A stretch of DNA of 64,000 nt from the NCBI RefSeq assembly GCF_028368995.1, contig NZ_JAQNDL010000001.1, positions 4,224,001-4,288,000 of the forward strand. Reading direction: 5' to 3'. The notes beneath the pieces are model-generated. The model did not search any database. It was not told where the DNA came from and saw only the letters and a program-made list of their open reading frames with translations. The position numbers were made by a program, and so were the translations under genes. This stretch comes from Nannocystis bainbridge. Its GTDB lineage: Bacteria > Myxococcota_A > Polyangia > Nannocystales > Nannocystaceae. Shown piece by piece: positions 1,654 through 63,303 of this stretch; the stretch's first letter is position 1, and every line of letters begins with the position of its first letter.

Positions 1654-1686
1654 GAATCGACCTGTCCTCGCGGACAGGTCACTGCC

Positions 1687-2160
1687 TCACCGCCCGGCCG
1701 CGATCAGCTCGGGCGGCGCCTGCACCAGCTCGATCAGCACGCCCTCGCCGCCGAGCGGCGCGCTGCCCTCGTCGCCGCGCGGGTGGATGAAGCACACGTC
1801 GTGGCCGGACGCGCCGCGGCGGATCCCGCCCGGGGCGAAGCGGACCCCCTGTCCCGAGAGCCAGGTCACCGCCGCCGCCAGGTCATCGACCCACAGGCCG
1901 ACGTGGTTGAGCGCCGGCTCGTGCACGCGCGGCCGCTTGTCGGGGTCGAGCGGCTGCATCAGATCGACCTCGACCTGCCACGGGCCCGTGCCGGCGACCG
2001 CGATGTCCTCGTCGACGTTCTCGCGCTCGCTGCGGAAGCTGCCGACGATCGGCAGGCCGAGCAGGTCGGACCACAGGTGCCGGAGCGCCGCCTTGTCGCG
2101 GCCGCCGACTGCGATTTGCTGGACCCCGAGGACGCGGAACGGGCGGTGTTCGCTGGTCAT
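1687..2160 (-). CDS. VOC/glyoxalase family protein (methylmalonyl-CoA epimerase-like)
   Basis: [21 protein letters not shown] and [11 protein letters not shown] motifs; ATG at 2160 overlaps the miaE stop. Confidence 0.85.
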
Positions 2161-2771
2161 GCCGCGCCGACTGTAGCGCAAGCCGCGACCGCGCTGTGCA
2201 GCCGCGGCTCGCCCGGGTCGCCCGCCAGCACCTCGGCCTCGTGCAGCGCCAGCGCCTCGAGCCGCGCGGCCAGCTCCTGCTCCGTCACCAGCCCCATCTC
2301 TCGCGCCAGCTCGACGTAGCTGTGGAAGTGTCGCGCCTCACACGCCAGCAGCCCGCGGTACAGCTTCACCAGCCCCGGGTCCTCCAGCGTCTCCGCCAGC
2401 AGCCGCATCCGCTCGCAGCTGCGGGCCTCGATCAGCGCGCAGCACAGCAGCGTGTCGAGCAGCCGCATCGGCTCGTGCGTGCGGGCGGCCGCCATCAACT
2501 TCGCCGCGTACGGGCTCGGCTTCTGGCGGCGGAACTCGAGCCCACGCGCGCGCATCACCGCCACCACCTCCTCGAAGTGGGCCAGCTCCTCGCGCGCCAG
2601 CCGCGACAGCGGCACCACCAGCGCCGGCCGCTCCGGATAGCGGAAGATCAGCGACAACGCCGTCGACGCCGCCTTCTTCTCGCAGTGCGCGTGGTCGAGG
2701 AGGATCTCGGGCAGGTGCTCGCGCGCTCGCGCGGCCCAGCTCTGGTCGGTCGGCGCGGCCAGGTGCAGCAT
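2157..2771 (-). CDS. miaE: tRNA-(ms2io6A)-hydroxylase
   Basis: [28 protein letters not shown] and EARH diiron motifs. Confidence 0.92.
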
Positions 2772-2782
2772 CGGCGACGGCA

Positions 2783-61200: not shown

Positions 61201-61417
61201 CGACCGCGCCCACCGCATCGGCCAGGACAAGCCCGTCATGGTCTACCGGCTGGTCTGCGAGGACACCGTCGAGCAGAAGATGGTCGAGCTCGGGGCCCGC
61301 AAGCGCGAGGTCGCCGAGAGCGCGCTCGGCCGCGACGTGACCGCCGGCAAGAAGCTGACGATCGAAGACGTCGAGGCGCTGCTCGAGACCCCGAGCGCTG
61401 CCACCTGGGATCAGTGA
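58289..61417 (+). CDS. SWIM zinc finger + SNF2-family helicase
   Basis: CDCP...FCHHAVAL SWIM; LREYQ, LADDMGLGKT, LDEAQYIKN, LSGTPVEN, SLKAGGSGL, QATDRAHRIGQ; GTG start inferred. Confidence 0.94.
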   Translation: MSTLEAFLPLFEPESLAKIASKKAYAAGVELFEAKAVSDIVFAGNCLKGKIKGTHSQPHAATIKLLESGAVEAVCDCPTFTDGWERFCHHAVALALALRKQYQAGGEITLTQNPWTADVAGTGANAQRYTIEARRGNWHVMAFRGGGTPVVSRRRYEGMSPADRVIHHYLSQEVDDADDGGHVIDDMALSGLLYFARGGSTVSLKGVGKLQFAAEPLTLRVRAEPRPGDNSVVLHAFLEQRSTGRDLEVPSGRVIVGAPTWFLLHETAEVFLVPDTPPWVLEAVAKQPRIVMDARVSAQAMDDLSESLKTAGVPHQDLFALASDSRKIDAIIATVEGDATQIKVALAARYGNATIGITGSEPESARYTINLGDQPLSFYRDLEGEAAARKTLTDLNLKYNPDADGFIATGDAAVEFTIVGIPLLPETWEKRVPQLPRVRSKSPTPRLAVRSKEGSVLDLDAIVDVEGEDDLISFRDLLRWLHEGRRWITLADGSVAKLDPQILQPIADAAGAIEFDKKGHAEISTLELGTLTRLLGAVPSADVAKEVKRLMENMTGERSAKAPKRAKTLTAKLREYQRSGFAWLWQLHENQMTGILADDMGLGKTVQALALLTKAKEEEGDQPTLIVCPTSVLSVWKQEVEKWAPSLRLTTWHGADRAENRRMLKKADIVVTTYAILRRDIDELSKIRWRYAILDEAQYIKNWATTTAKSAKQLTADHRLALSGTPVENHLADLWAIFDFLAPNFLGKLSDFQKNYVRPIEENDGKTLEALRARIRPFVMRRKKEDVAQELPPKTEQTLFVQFSRSQLGLYNRILKTAKDEIKGRIEEVGLEKSQMTILAALTRLRQVCCDPRLLGLPDASTLPPSAKLEAFKELMADCVGSGRKVLVFSQFVEMQKLLGDALNELKIPYLWLHGGTKNREELVLQFQTKSGPPVFLISLKAGGSGLTLTEADTVVHFDPWWNPAVEDQATDRAHRIGQDKPVMVYRLVCEDTVEQKMVELGARKREVAESALGRDVTAGKKLTIEDVEALLETPSAATWDQ

Positions 61418-61424
61418 GGACACC

Positions 61425-62948
61425 ATGGCCGGCGACCCCGACGCGATCGTCATCGGCTCCGGCCCCAACGGCCTCGTGGCCGCCTGCATGCTCGCGCGCG
61501 CCGGCATGCGCGTGCTCGTGTGCGAGGCGAACCCGCGGCGCTGGGGCGGCGCGCTCGGCTCGGAGGAGGCGACCCTGCCCGGCTTCGTCCACGACGTCGG
61601 CGCCGCGCTGTTCCCGTTCCCGCGCATCAGCCCGGCCTTCCGCGCGCTCGACCTCGAGAAGCAGGGCGTCGAGCTGTGCTTCGCCGAGTTCGACAGCTGT
61701 CACCCCGCGCCCGACGGTTCGGTCGCGTGCATCAGCCGCGACCTCGAGCTCGCCTCGCGTCACTTCGGCGACCCGCGCGACGGCGAGACCTTCGCCGCGC
61801 TGGCCCGCTGGTACCGCGGCGTCGAGCCGGCGGTGCTGGGGATCCTCCTCAACACGCTGCCGACGCTCGCGCCGGTCCTGAAGCTGCTGCCGTTCGGGAT
61901 CTTCAAGCTCGCGCGGATCTTGCTGTCCTCGGGGGCAGGTCTGTCGCGCCGGCTGTTCCGCGGCGAGGCGGCCCGGCGCGTCATGCCGGGGCTGGCGCTG
62001 CACGTCGACGTCGGCCCGCGCGACCCGCTCGGCGCGGCGCTGGGCTTCATGCTCGGCATGACCGCGACCACCGGCGGTTACTCGATCCCGCGCGGCGGGG
62101 CGCAGGTGCTGGCCGACGCCATGGTCGCCGACCTGCGCCGTCATGGCGGCGAGATCCGCCTCGCCAGCCGCGTCGAACGGATCCTCACGGAAGGTCGCCG
62201 CGCCGTCGGCGTCCGCCTCGCCGACGGCACCGAGCTGCGCGCCGCTCGCCGCGCCGTGATCGCCGACACCGCCGTCGCCTCGCTGATGCTCGACCTCGTC
62301 GCGCGCGACCTCGTGCCCCGCCGCGTGGTCCGCTTCATGGAGAAGTTCCCGCAGGGTTGGGGCACCTTCAAGGTCGACTGGGCCCTGTCGGCGCCGGTCC
62401 CGTGGGCTGTCCCCGAGGCCAGGCGCGCCGCGGTCGTGCACGCCGGCGACAGCCTCGACGACCTCGAGCGCTTCACCGCCCAGGTCCGCCGCGGCGAGCT
62501 GCCCGACAACCCGTATCTGGTCATCGGTCAACAGAGCCTGTTCGACCCGACGCGCGCCCCGGCCGGCCAGCACACGCTGTGGGCGTACTCGCGCGTGCCG
62601 AGCCGGCCCGCGGGCGGCTGGTCGGCCCACGCCGCGGCCTTCGCCGACCGCGTCGACGCCCGCATCGAGGGCCTCGCGCCCGGCTTCCGCAGCACCGTGC
62701 TCGCGCGCCGGGTCGTCGCCCCACCTGACCTCGAGGCCATGGACGCCAACCTCGTCGGCGGCGACCTTGGCGGCGGCTCGAATGCCTGGCACCGCCAGCT
62801 CATCTTCCGCCCGCTGTTCCCCTACTTCCGCCACCGCATGCCGGTCGAGGGTCTCTACCTGTGCTCGAGCTACGCACATCCGGGCGCGGGTGTGCACGGC
62901 ATGTGCGGCTACAACGCGGCGCAGATCGTCCTGCGCGACCTCGGCTGA
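61425..62948 (+). CDS. phytoene-dehydrogenase-like NAD(P)/FAD-dependent oxidoreductase
   Basis: IGSGPNGL, PRGGAQ, GLYLCSSYAHPGAGVHGMCGYNAA. Confidence 0.9.
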   Translation: MAGDPDAIVIGSGPNGLVAACMLARAGMRVLVCEANPRRWGGALGSEEATLPGFVHDVGAALFPFPRISPAFRALDLEKQGVELCFAEFDSCHPAPDGSVACISRDLELASRHFGDPRDGETFAALARWYRGVEPAVLGILLNTLPTLAPVLKLLPFGIFKLARILLSSGAGLSRRLFRGEAARRVMPGLALHVDVGPRDPLGAALGFMLGMTATTGGYSIPRGGAQVLADAMVADLRRHGGEIRLASRVERILTEGRRAVGVRLADGTELRAARRAVIADTAVASLMLDLVARDLVPRRVVRFMEKFPQGWGTFKVDWALSAPVPWAVPEARRAAVVHAGDSLDDLERFTAQVRRGELPDNPYLVIGQQSLFDPTRAPAGQHTLWAYSRVPSRPAGGWSAHAAAFADRVDARIEGLAPGFRSTVLARRVVAPPDLEAMDANLVGGDLGGGSNAWHRQLIFRPLFPYFRHRMPVEGLYLCSSYAHPGAGVHGMCGYNAAQIVLRDLG

Positions 62949-63303
62949 GCGACGCGAGGGCCGCCCCGGCGCCACCTCTGCTTCGCCGGACGACGTCCAC
63001 CGCGACGTCACCTCGGCATCGCCCTGTTCTGCACCGAGGGTGTCGCATGACCCTCGCCGTCGCGCGAACTCGATTGTTGTCTCCGCCTGTCCCGAAGTAC
63101 ATGTAATACCCTCGACGACCGTCGCTACCGCCGCGCGTGAGACAAGCGTTCAGCCGCCGCCCTGGGTCCACGTCCACCGGCGATCGTCACGCGAAAACCT
63201 GTGCGCGACGCCGCGGTGCAACCTCCTCCCACGAGGTGAGCGCGCGCCGACGCGCCAGCGCATCGATCGCAACGCGGCGACACACTCGCTACCATCGATG
63301 CGC

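Follow-up and report, generated by a model that had tools for sequence, protein, structure and literature searches.

We analyzed a 64,000-nt window of the Nannocystis bainbridge genome (GCF_028368995.1, contig NZ_JAQNDL010000001.1, positions 4,224,001-4,288,000, forward strand) that carries copies of the interrupted palindrome TGTC-N6-GACA both between and within its genes. These 14-bp units and the genes around them are given below in window coordinates, with their state in four congeners where this was determined.

1659-1680: isolated perfect unit (1663-1676) with a stem lengthened to 9 bp by its flanks, in a convergent spacer 10 nt past the stop of a GGDEF/EAL gene; folds at -17.3 kcal/mol (z -5.1); present at this position in three of four congeners, with different spacers.
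3621-3662: perfect unit (3621-3634), degenerate middle unit and one-mismatch unit (3649-3662) in 14-bp register, running into the start of a gene at 3648; all four congeners keep the stems, and the spacers vary.
6569-6581: sole N5 variant (TGTC-N5-GACA) in the window.
6600-6643: perfect unit (6600-6613) and one-mismatch unit (6630-6643) in the spacer ahead of a gene end at 6653; found in one of four congeners.
8404-8431: one unit and the beginning of another inside a CarboxypepD_reg-repeat gene (6653-9577, minus strand); core kept in three of four congeners.
9587-9626: two-mismatch unit (9587) followed by a perfect one (9613), in the spacer between two genes on one strand.
13173-13186: isolated perfect unit upstream of a metallophosphatase gene (13503-14828); conserved in four of four congeners with a changed spacer.
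14908-14935: doublet (14908, 14922) between genes at 14828 and 14991.
16055-16110: four-unit array inside an SMC-like AAA_27 gene (14991-18542), encoding ...TMSPGTRPEDHVRWV... in a variable-length linker; conserved in four of four congeners.
17363-17376: intragenic one-mismatch unit in the same SMC-like gene.
18549-18618: five-unit array that takes up the convergent spacer from the SMC-like gene (stop 18542) to an asparagine synthase gene (18623-20563, minus strand); four congeners keep the CATG register with unrelated spacers; folding z -6.5 (plus strand) and -5.1 (minus strand).
23332-26973: nrdJ.
30697-30724: doublet at the junction of an FHA gene and an FG-GAP gene.
32474-32868: cluster of 11 units with at most two mismatches, mostly doublets of TGCCCTTCGGGGCA plus TGTCC..., adjoining a tRNA gene and carried by a 62-63-bp tandem repeat in about 4-5 copies.
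35803-35816: isolated perfect unit in a spacer, not found at the same place in the congeners.
37029-37281: 3.7 copies of a 68-bp tandem repeat (91% matches), each with one perfect unit (37081, 37149, 37217) and a degenerate unit 34 bp off.
41078-41119: convergent spacer with a perfect TGTC-N6-GACA unit and, 28 bp further along, a two-mismatch unit.
46726-46767: three in-register units inside proC (46284-47183, minus strand), over conserved ...PVIRAMPNTPCLIGQG...; no indel relative to outgroup orthologs, the motif being made by codon choice; kept in four of four congeners.
48597-48719: three units (48597, 48664, 48706) in a spacer that is not alignable in the congeners.
49375-49402: doublet past a gene end at 49233; the congeners keep the second unit.
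50535-50548: intragenic perfect unit in a gene (49681-50649) without a Pfam family; kept in four of four congeners.
50883-50924: three in-register units (50883, 50897, 50911).
55315-55328: perfect unit upstream of a gene at 55452; its spacer is CTTCGG.
56528-56728: four units (56528, 56600, 56659 and a perfect one at 56715) around convergent gene ends at 56576 and 56850.
57548-57561: intragenic one-mismatch unit in an MTS methyltransferase gene (56850-57890, minus strand); no indel relative to three outgroup or distant orthologs.
58289-61417: SNF2 gene.
61924-61937: intragenic one-mismatch unit in an amine-oxidase-like gene (61425-62948); no indel, conserved residues L/A-S-S-G-A-G.
62408-62421: second intragenic one-mismatch unit in the amine-oxidase-like gene.
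63088-63101: one-mismatch unit in the convergent spacer that follows 62948, at the end of the range first described.

A sequence-only reading of this window had counted 21 perfect copies by eye, and we recovered exactly 21, at every start position it listed. Its rough estimate of fewer than one copy by chance also agrees with dinucleotide-preserving shuffles (n = 100; mean 0.59, sd 0.74, largest value 3), none of which reached 21, giving an approximately 36-fold excess. Relaxing the pattern to TGYY-N6-RRCA yielded 43 matches, about two dozen of them variants beyond the perfect sites, compared with 9.0 expected and 17 in the highest shuffle. The N5 case it had noticed is real and single, with no N7 counterpart, and nrdJ and the SNF2 gene, in which it had seen no sites, contain neither a perfect nor a one-mismatch unit. 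Its impression that the spacer is often CTTCGG or CCGAAG did not survive counting: each occurs once among the 21 window sites and in 105 and 88, respectively, of 3663 sites genome-wide, so neither is frequent.

Spacing is sharply defined across the genome. TGTC-Nk-GACA occurs 3663 times at k = 6 and 29-175 times at k = 0-5 and 7-19; the 984 copies at k = 20 arise because units abut. The core unit is TGTCC-N4-GGACA, with 1987, 4258, and 7530 copies at zero, one, and two mismatches, whereas the same half-sites at other spacings give 0-16, 98-322, and 2058-5923 copies. The motif of isolated copies is longer, at about 20 bp, RCM-TGTCC-N4-GGACA-KGY (flank frequencies in 2585 isolated units: A.51, C.59, C.65 before the unit and G.62, G.47, T.47 after it), and 2143 array units are flanked by ACA and TGT. 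Relative to the 1987 perfect units, variants altered on a single side of the stem number 50 at G2/C13, 432 at T1/A14, 498 at C4/G11, 1389 at C5/G10, and 1889 at T3/A12. Conservation of the stem is thus base-specific and two-fold symmetric. Compensatory double changes are few; by arithmetic on the stem-variant counts they run approximately 1.3 to 3.3 times above independence, so hairpin pairing may matter. Oriented relative to transcription, the 4-nt centre has no strand bias (C 1357, G 1304, A 1051, T 1044). Base-specific symmetric conservation and a strand-neutral spacer fit a putative symmetric reader of duplex DNA.

Genome-wide, overlapping copies spaced exactly 14 bp apart build arrays of two to eight units: 1451 doublets, 363 triplets, and 95, 50, 18, 3, and 2 arrays of four, five, six, seven, and eight units, respectively. 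Doublets at a pitch of 12, 13, 15, or 16 bp number only 0-9. Neighbouring units have unrelated centres, with 58 exact reverse-complement matches between them versus 44 after shuffling. Several features nevertheless look like slippage- or REP-like behaviour: identical neighbouring centres (93 versus 27 shuffled), whole-unit gaps (among gaps of at least 4 nt, 4 of the 21 lying in units are exactly 14 nt long, compared with 11 of about 700 elsewhere), and one 8-unit array that is a near-perfect tandem duplication. When array stretches were folded as single strands, four of the seven tested were stable (z -5.1 to -6.5). Neither the phased arrays nor the long motif of isolated copies figured in the sequence-only reading.

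Placement is strongly uneven. On a crude GC3-based gene set covering 77-81% of the genome, convergent spacers hold 3.45 units per kb, tandem spacers 1.47, divergent spacers 0.64, and genes 0.284. The earlier idea that position is independent of promoters is not supported, since units are more than five times sparser in divergent than in convergent spacers. At least one unit is present in 57% of convergent spacers, copies in tandem spacers lie a median of 84 nt past the upstream stop codon, and 63% of perfect sites are intergenic (20% of random positions), with about 35% genic. The convergent excess and the 84-nt median could reflect a 3'-end function rather than low constraint alone.

Within called CDS, TGTC-N6-GACA occurs 1294 times versus 76-102 in three synonymous-codon shuffles (approximately 15-fold), and at every other k the counts equal those of the shuffles. 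The reading frame stays unbroken across isolated deep-genic units in 808 of 847 cases and across doublets with determinable phase in 275 of 284; ACA codons inside perfect sites number 544 of 3584. The units in proC and at 61924, 62408, and 57548—all four that could be aligned with other genera—lie over conserved residues and involve no indel. Between species, genic cores were fully retained in 43 of 58 cases (genome G010) and 44 of 57 (G005), or 74-77%, versus 0.53 for frame-matched controls. Given the excess over codon shuffles, the kept frame, the absence of indels at the four aligned units, and this retention, genic copies appear to arise in place rather than by insertion; at the level of aligned sequence, origin by substitution is shown for those four units, and frame continuity implies it for most genic copies. 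Spacer identity at genic copies is 0.84-0.86 versus 0.91 in controls, placing them in less conserved stretches. Conservation is poor for intergenic copies, which are alignable in 35-39% of cases versus 64-65% of controls, with core retention of 46-53% versus 41-43%.

The motif is abundant only in Nannocystis and two sister genera, the latter with a few hundred, mostly isolated, sites. We found no Rfam family for it and no paper on it. We favor, at even odds (probability about 0.5), a clade-specific, HIP1-like iterated palindrome with a putative symmetric protein reader, spread by selection or by biased repair, recombination, or uptake. The motif would be read as duplex DNA by a sequence-specific protein with two-fold symmetry, probably a dimer, and most copies would be made in place by base substitution rather than pasted in as mobile DNA. 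Copies would be created and kept by a genome-wide directional force, either selection favouring the site or repair, recombination, or DNA uptake biased in its favour, and removed by purifying selection on other functions. Density would therefore rise as constraint falls, in the order genes, divergent promoter spacers, tandem spacers, and convergent 3' spacers. Because the long motif's three outermost bases (AC-A/C ... G/T-GT) fit the ends of the core, sites can share 6 bp; sites in unconstrained 3' spacers would then pack at their closest self-compatible pitch of 14 bp, as the arrays partly show, which would leave uniform cores around unrelated 4-nt centres. Whole-unit slippage, seen in a few cases, may add or remove units. 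Selection acting across approximately 10,000 sites is, on the other side, hard to sustain. Part of the sequence-only interpretation stands: a genome-wide, clade-specific site class with fixed spacing and variable spacer; a putative symmetric reader of duplex DNA, which base-specific two-fold symmetry and the absence of spacer strand bias fit; and likeness to HIP1 in several tested respects (excess inside and between ORFs, in-place genic origin, core retention). Independence from promoters is not supported. Nor do the copies collapse into a known MITE or REP: the arrays are REP/BIME-like, yet our searches returned no known element and no RAYT gene.

A hairpin element of the REP/BIME type, copied or inserted by a non-RAYT enzyme that recognizes the stem and retained at gene 3' ends, is possible, if unlikely. 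Its hairpins might work at the RNA or the DNA level, in bidirectional termination, mRNA 3'-end protection, or topoisomerase binding, with genic copies as by-products. The intergenic share of 63% versus 20%, the occupancy of 57% of convergent spacers, and the median of 84 nt past stops all suit such an element, as do the unit-sized indels and tandem duplications of arrays, the stable predicted folds, the fast turnover in spacers, and the larger 62-bp and 68-bp repeats that bear units. Against it, a Y1/RAYT transposase was found in none of 11 Nannocystis genomes by a search that matched 6 of 14 reference genomes as a control, and the roughly 35% of perfect sites that are genic sit in frame without indels. 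The strict N4 centre, base-specific stem, and few compensatory pairs are also unlike selection for pairing alone, no T-run follows the units, and their centres have no strand bias relative to transcription. An ordinary transcription-factor regulon, under a CRP/FNR-like dimer or a LexA-like repressor (the latter because isolated copies contain CTGT-N8-ACAG), is very improbable. The motif does resemble CRP/FNR- or LexA-like operators in its 4-6-4 geometry and its symmetry over 20 bp, and the few hundred mostly isolated sites of the sister genera would suit a regulon, but thousands of sites, a third of them inside genes, the lowest intergenic density in divergent promoter spacers, and arrays of up to eight units would not.

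That the motif is a conserved DNA methyltransferase target, as proposed for HIP1, kept by methylation-linked repair bias or by function, we regard as improbable. Type I enzymes recognize bipartite sites with a fixed unspecific gap, and the genome encodes a candidate, an orphan-looking Type I M+S pair (G000:C1, approximately 2.005-2.009 Mb). Its HsdM (N6_Mtase + HsdM_N) adjoins HsdS, none of five other neighbouring ORFs tested (12 kb) matched an HsdR family, and the sole HSDR_N match in the genome is weak and 2 Mb away. Full-length HsdS orthologs (49-93% identity) occur in 8 of 8 g1, 3 of 5 g2 (plus one partial), and 6 of 7 g4 genomes, the same three genera that are motif-rich, and in none of 41 genomes from 14 other genera. 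These three genera are probably one clade, however, so the same distribution would be expected of any clade-specific gene and amounts to one event; moreover, genome G011 has 623 copies, and no HsdS ortholog was found there. The HsdS halves are only 30% identical over 84 aa, arguing against a symmetric target, and T3/A12, the pair best placed for Type I methylation, belongs to the two stem pairs that vary most. A search for a Vsr-family nuclease gave no match, and methylation alone leaves the arrays unexplained. A DNA-uptake-type signal, with biased uptake and recombination of relatives' DNA spreading the motif through coding and non-coding sequence alike, is quite improbable. Known uptake signals are asymmetric and are not known to form phased arrays, and we found no transformation data for Nannocystis. 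Restriction of the over-representation to the genus or clade, genic copies in less conserved stretches (0.84-0.86 versus 0.91), and enrichment in 3' spacers would nonetheless fit uptake, and HIP1 is now proposed to act as such a signal (PMC13756078). Homologs of comEC and dprA are present, but competence genes are near-universal (control searches match 10 and 11 of 14 reference genomes), so their presence is uninformative.

Four known systems bear comparison. Rickettsia palindromic elements are palindromic repeats lying in frame within protein-coding genes, but as inserts of approximately 100-150 bp that add residues, whereas the Nannocystis units brought no length change in any of the four alignable cases. 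The DUS of Neisseria and the USS of Pasteurellaceae, thought to spread by molecular drive, with intergenic copies paired at 3' ends, are likewise clade-specific over-represented oligomers at about one per kb in genes and spacers; unlike them, the Nannocystis motif is a fixed-gap palindrome in phased arrays. Like REP/BIME/REPIN sequences, it consists of short palindromic units that can form hairpins, number from hundreds to thousands, and turn over fast; in both, the units cluster into arrays and gather downstream of genes and in convergent spacers. Its unit, however, is 14 bp, self-symmetric, and head to tail rather than 20-40 bp, it has neither the GTAG nor the CGTC tag that marks REPs, a third of its copies are genic and made without insertion, and no RAYT gene was found in any of the 11 Nannocystis genomes searched. 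HIP1 (GCGATCGC) of cyanobacteria is likewise a short palindrome hugely over-represented genome-wide (15-300 fold; PMC5861425), within and between ORFs, confined to one clade and conserved between species beyond background. The Nannocystis motif differs in belonging to Myxococcota, in being interrupted, with a free 4-nt centre and approximately 16 specified positions in place of an uninterrupted octamer, and in its exact 14-bp phased arrays and strong gene-3'-end bias; HIP1 is recognized by two methylases (PMC13756078), and the Nannocystis motif has no known cognate methyltransferase. Our best reading places REP/BIME-like arrays at gene 3' ends alongside a HIP1-like character.

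A scan of the window for perfect sites (TGTC-N6-GACA) returned exactly 21, every one starting where the sequence-only reading had listed it, and that reading's rough estimate of fewer than one copy expected per window agrees with the mean of 0.59 that we obtained from dinucleotide-preserving shuffles (sd 0.74, maximum 3; none of 100 shuffles reached 21). The looser pattern TGYY-N6-RRCA gave 43 matches against 9.0 expected, the N5 case reported at 6569 is present as the single N5 variant, and N7 variants are absent from the window. Across the genome of N. bainbridge (11.05 Mb in five contigs, 71.5% GC), of which the window occupies C1:4224001-4288000, a spacing k of six bases between TGTC and GACA yields 3,663 copies, and each other spacing from 0 to 19 yields 29–175. 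When synonymous codons were permuted within genes (three replicates), sites at k = 6 in called coding sequence fell from 1,294 to 76, 81, and 102; at other spacings, counts in called coding sequence equalled those of the shuffles. The feature is real and spacing-specific, and it shows, in the window as in the genome, the over-representation that characterizes HIP-type palindromes. The rarest spacing genome-wide is TGTC-N8-GACA (29 copies; neighboring spacings 48–175). TGTC/GACA direct pairs have a 3-bp periodic excess (k = 2, 5, 8, 11, and onward), which probably reflects coding.

The longer unit TGTCC-N4-GGACA occurs in 1,987 perfect copies, with 4,258 more at one mismatch (98–322 at other spacings) and 7,530 at two (2,058–5,923 at other spacings); by subtraction, recognizable units number roughly 8–10 thousand. 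They are found on all five contigs at 4.8–7.1 per 10 kb and are clumped along the genome (20-kb bins, mean 11.3, variance 42). Conservation of the core is position-specific and symmetric: set against the 1,987 perfect units, variants altered on one side only number 50 at G2/C13, 432 at T1/A14, 498 at C4/G11, 1,389 at C5/G10, and 1,889 at T3/A12. Compensatory double changes are scarce, at 1.3 to 3.3 fold above independence by arithmetic on these variant counts. The 4-nt centre is almost free, and the most frequent 6-nt spacers account for about 3% each.

Many units are chained head to tail. GACA is followed immediately by TGTC at 2,237 places, and 1,973 of these GACATGTC junctions have a correctly spaced partner half-site on at least one side; genome-wide, TGTC-N10-TGTC occurs 3,246 times, GACA-N14-TGTC 1,305 times, and TGTC-N20-GACA 984 times. 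At a pitch of exactly 14 bp we counted 1,451 doublets and 363 triplets, and longer arrays of four, five, six, seven, and eight units number 95, 50, 18, 3, and 2, respectively; pitches of 12, 13, 15, or 16 bp gave 0–9 doublets. A little tandem duplication occurs, since adjacent centres that are exact direct repeats number 93 versus 27 after shuffling. Nested long hairpins built from reverse-complementary adjacent units were rejected, as exact cases number 58 versus 44 shuffled and neighboring centres are unrelated. Isolated units (n = 2,585; both neighboring positions at five or more mismatches) have a symmetric flank of their own, A-C-C on the 5' side and G-G-T on the 3' side, and array units (n = 2,143) carry ACA/TGT at the flank positions. 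The flanks of isolated units therefore give a full site of about 20 bp, RCM-TGTCC-N4-GGACA-KGY, and the arrays are 20-bp sites with a 6-bp overlap.

Relative to a gene set obtained by crude GC3-periodicity calling (7,354 genes, 77–81% of the contigs), 2,324 of the 3,663 perfect sites are intergenic, 1,289 are genic, 49 lie across a gene edge, and 1 is at a contig end; 20% of random positions are intergenic. Units with at most one mismatch reach 3.45 per kb in convergent spacers, 1.47 in tandem spacers, 0.64 in divergent spacers, and 0.284 in genes, and at least one unit is present in 700 of 1,228 convergent and 234 of 1,228 divergent spacers. Sites in tandem spacers lie at a median of 84 nt past the upstream stop and 252 nt ahead of the next start. 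The orientation of the centres shows no bias relative to gene strand, and on this ground we rejected selection for RNA loops, UUCG among them. As the sequence-only reading had noted, nrdJ (23332-26973) and the SNF2 helicase gene (58289-61417) are both unit-free. The product of nrdJ is a class II ribonucleotide reductase with a C-terminal TSCPD domain. Together with an S41 peptidase gene, nrdJ belongs to the closely packed housekeeping genes of a unit-poor stretch at 20–30 kb of the window, and these contents speak against foreign DNA there. Multi-copy DNA, taken as a proxy for newly arrived DNA (26 regions, 70 kb), carries 5.7 units per 10 kb versus 5.65 genome-wide. Blocks of about 3.5 kb in at least three copies stand at several contig ends, with 1–6 units each, and a 3.5 + 1.8 kb block in three copies (C1 2062744, C1 4457801, C5 64776), which may be the rRNA operon, is unit-free. 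GC skew of contig C1 is negative nearly throughout (−0.02 to −0.10) and positive in its final 40 kb alone, with no clear origin or terminus switch along this contig. The blocks at contig ends and the unit-free tandem repeats of the window are as follows.

C1 4515595-4536508, multi-copy block at a contig end
C2 0-3551 and 3022017-3033729, multi-copy blocks at contig ends
C5 710317-717566, multi-copy block at a contig end
Window 21920-21993, perfect 18-bp tandem repeat, 4.1 copies, without units
Window 45751-45944, 72-bp tandem repeat, 2.7 copies, 95% matches, without units
Window 50590-50844, 91-bp tandem repeat, 2.8 copies, without units

Judged by GC3 phase where this could be determined, the reading frame is continuous through 808 of 847 deep-genic isolated units, 275 of 284 doublets, and 38 of 39 triplets; the same test at random genic positions gave 2,730 of 2,796. 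This continuity speaks against pasting, because a 14-bp or 28-bp insert would shift the frame. Compared with orthologs in other genera, the proC triplet (46726-46767) and the units at 61924, 62408, and 57548 show no indel and conserved residues, the motif being made through codon choice, including rare codons. The array at 16055 in the SMC-like gene falls in a variable linker that is not alignable, and the unit at 27179 sits in a variable, unalignable N-terminus. Perfect frame-1 sites contain 544 of the 3,584 ACA codons in called genes, where ACA makes up 2.4% of Thr codons. The proC site of a genome whose genus lacks the genome-wide motif (G014, locus L017) has the same unusual codons, AAT, CCA, and TGT, as Nannocystis; judging from these codons, the site may predate the expansion or may be convergent.

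Identity between the window and four aligned congeners (G001, G005, G007, and G010) is about 91%. Within genes, the eight core bases of the sites at 8404, 16069, 46726, and 50535 are kept in 15 of 16 comparisons with them; in intergenic arrays, such as that at 18549, place and CATG register are kept, centres are unrelated, and unit number varies. The conservation in relatives that the sequence-only reading had proposed examining is evident in genes over 464 kb syntenic with G010 and G005, two species akin to each other and hence not independent samples: the full core is kept at 43 of 58 and 44 of 57 genic sites, respectively, versus 0.53 for frame- and strand-matched control 14-mers. The spacers of these sites are less conserved than controls (identity 0.84–0.86 versus 0.91). 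Intergenic sites are alignable in 39/110 and 43/110 cases versus 0.64–0.65 of controls, with core retention of 0.46–0.53 versus 0.41–0.43 and spacer identity of 0.66–0.68 versus 0.85–0.86, a contrast of which part may come from BLAST pairing non-orthologous array units. Gaps of at least 4 nt within units are exactly 14 nt long in 4 of 21 cases, versus 11 of about 700 elsewhere. Soil-metagenome contigs over window 1500-21000 are short and fragmentary and reveal nothing clear at the arrays. Coding copies combine excess within ORFs (1,294 versus 76–102) with cores kept above controls between species, as HIP-type palindromes do.

A 19-base pattern of one unit plus the next half-site has 311 copies in N. 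bainbridge; each of the 10 further genomes of this genus contains it too, just one of them as a single copy; 20 genomes from other genera hold one copy altogether. Counts of perfect sites, paired with the reversed pattern as control, delimit three genera.

Genome counts of TGTC-N6-GACA and of the reversed control pattern.
Nannocystis (g1), 8 genomes: sites 548-3957; control 21-48
Sister genus g2, 5 genomes: sites 503-705; control 10-109
Sister genus g4, 7 genomes: sites 283-1335; control 9-50
14 other genera, 41 genomes: sites 16-186; control 9-73

Sampled sequence from g4 (400 kb) and g2 (286 kb) displays the k = 6 excess, chiefly as isolated sites with ACC...GGT flanks. A scan of all prokaryotes (one genome per species) for pairs of perfect units lying side by side gave 49 loci: 32 in Nannocystis, 14 in Mesorhizobium, and 3 single matches. 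In the six Mesorhizobium loci that we inspected (L055, L059, L063, L067, L081, and L086), the motif is the middle of a different dispersed palindrome of about 48 bp, whose central 28 bases happen to equal two adjacent units and whose arms are C-rich and G-rich. Because its surroundings differ between loci, this looks like a separate REP-like family.

HIP-type palindromes have a cognate methyltransferase, usually an orphan, that reads the palindrome or its core. In N. bainbridge an HsdM gene adjoins an HsdS gene at about 2.005–2.009 Mb of C1 (G000:C1:2005000-2009000; locus L201, 3035-7002); five other ORFs tested in the surrounding 12 kb gave no match to the HsdR family, and one weak HSDR_N match in the whole genome lies 2 Mb from the pair. 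Full-length HsdS orthologs (49–93% identity) occur in 8 of 8 Nannocystis genomes, 3 of 5 in g2 plus one partial, 6 of 7 in g4, and 0 of 41 in other genera, and the genera that have them are the same three that are rich in the motif; one genome, G011, is an exception to this match. HsdS is unusually conserved, at 88–93% identity between close species and about 50% over the three genera, and its two halves are dissimilar. Common descent alone may account for the co-occurrence, as other proteins indicate that the three genera may be mutually nearest relatives, and we regard HsdM+HsdS as a candidate reader of the motif, not as evidence for one. The HsdS family overall is scattered (40 of 61 genomes), D12 methyltransferases occur in 58 of 61 genomes and hence are not discriminated by phyletic profile, and the search for the Vsr family found none.

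The sequence-only reading had named collapse into fragments of a known MITE or REP element as one outcome that would count against it; no MITE-like insertion was seen and no RAYT was found. A MITE has terminal inverted repeats and a target-site duplication, measures 50–500 bp, and arrives by insertion; the unit here is 14–20 bp, all 4 alignable genic units lack an indel, and the frame is kept in 808 of 847. In an intrinsic terminator a T-run comes after a GC-rich hairpin whose loop and stem vary; here spacing and stem sequence are fixed and no T-run follows, T frequency being at most 0.30 at every position past the TGT flank. Sites of a transcription-factor regulon would lie in the promoters of a restricted number of genes. 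Here sites number in the thousands, density is lower in divergent spacers than in any other intergenic class, and the distribution is not promoter-centred, which is not the pattern of a regulon. Among Rfam covariance models, two tRNAs alone attain the gathering score in the window. For a DNA-uptake signal, comEC and dprA homologs are present, and identical searches were positive in most control genomes. A REP- or BIME-like hairpin role at gene ends has several features in its favor, namely strong 3' bias, predicted folds that are stable (z −5.1 to −6.5 in 4 of 7 stretches), unit-sized indels, and occasional tandem duplications; BIME-like, too, are the clusters of 2–8 units at gene 3' ends (convergent 3.45/kb versus divergent 0.64/kb). 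REPs, however, are strictly extragenic imperfect palindromes of 20–40 nt, whereas the 14-bp unit places 1,289 of 3,663 perfect sites in called genes with the frame continuous. REP/RAYT systems, moreover, have a RAYT gene in the genome, typically REP-flanked, whereas Y1/RAYT transposase (PF01797) had no match in 11 genomes of the genus under a search whose control was positive in 6 of 14 reference genomes. Such a role may nevertheless exist, and it is compatible with, rather than exclusive of, recognition of the duplex.

The sequence evidence fits a symmetric protein that reads the DNA duplex better than it fits selection for pairing, because the spacing is strict, the core symmetric and base-specific, compensation scarce, and strand bias absent. 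A 15-fold coding excess, arising in place against codon preference and kept between species, requires a directional force; selection is one candidate, and a bias in repair, recombination, or uptake is another. Acting everywhere and opposed by other constraints, this force would order density as genes < divergent < tandem < convergent, and self-overlap of the 20-bp site would produce arrays of exact 14-bp pitch with unrelated centres. A further-reaching reading, to which we give roughly one chance in five, is that sequence drive operates in a single clade of myxobacteria: a symmetric protein that reads DNA would keep converting sequence, coding or not, toward the 20-bp palindrome. The orphan Type I methyltransferase restricted to the clade is one possible identity for this protein, and a factor of uptake or repair is another; the drive would have captured 15% of all ACA codons and tiled 3' spacers with 14-bp phased arrays. 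If true, sequence drive here would give the HIP1 phenomenon a second case, independent of the first and open to mechanistic study. The roughly 10,000 units, predicted to form hairpins, also matter in practice: they bear on assembly, on the design of primers, and on the expression of Nannocystis genes, natural-product clusters among them, in other hosts.

Searches of the available literature library found no mention of TGTC-N6-GACA, TGTCN6GACA, TGTCNNNNNNGACA, TGTCC-N4-GGACA, or TGTCCNNNNGGACA, and no literature on repeats of such kind in Nannocystis. We thus have a genome-wide iterated palindrome that is abundant, real, and apparently undescribed; its architecture (interrupted core, 20-bp extent, and phased overlapping arrays) and its phylum are new. 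To our knowledge, HIP1-like hyper-abundant palindromes have gone unexplained for decades, in part because there is essentially a single well-studied example. The Nannocystis palindrome provides an independent case outside the cyanobacterial phylum with richer handles than HIP1: its motif is long and rich in information, its free centre lets constraint on the core be told apart from neutral change, its arrays are phased, its imprint on codon usage is measurable, and its abundance is graded (283–1,335 copies in two genera, 548–3,957 in Nannocystis). These properties permit selection to be tested against biased repair or uptake and a reader protein to be sought. HIP1 itself is a cyanobacterial octamer, GCGATCGC, from which the Nannocystis palindrome differs in sequence and architecture; one study describes HIP1 as over-represented 15–300 fold, with conservation both inside ORFs and in the DNA between them (PMC5861425). 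The 15-fold excess of Nannocystis sites within genes, and their retention between species, match this description.
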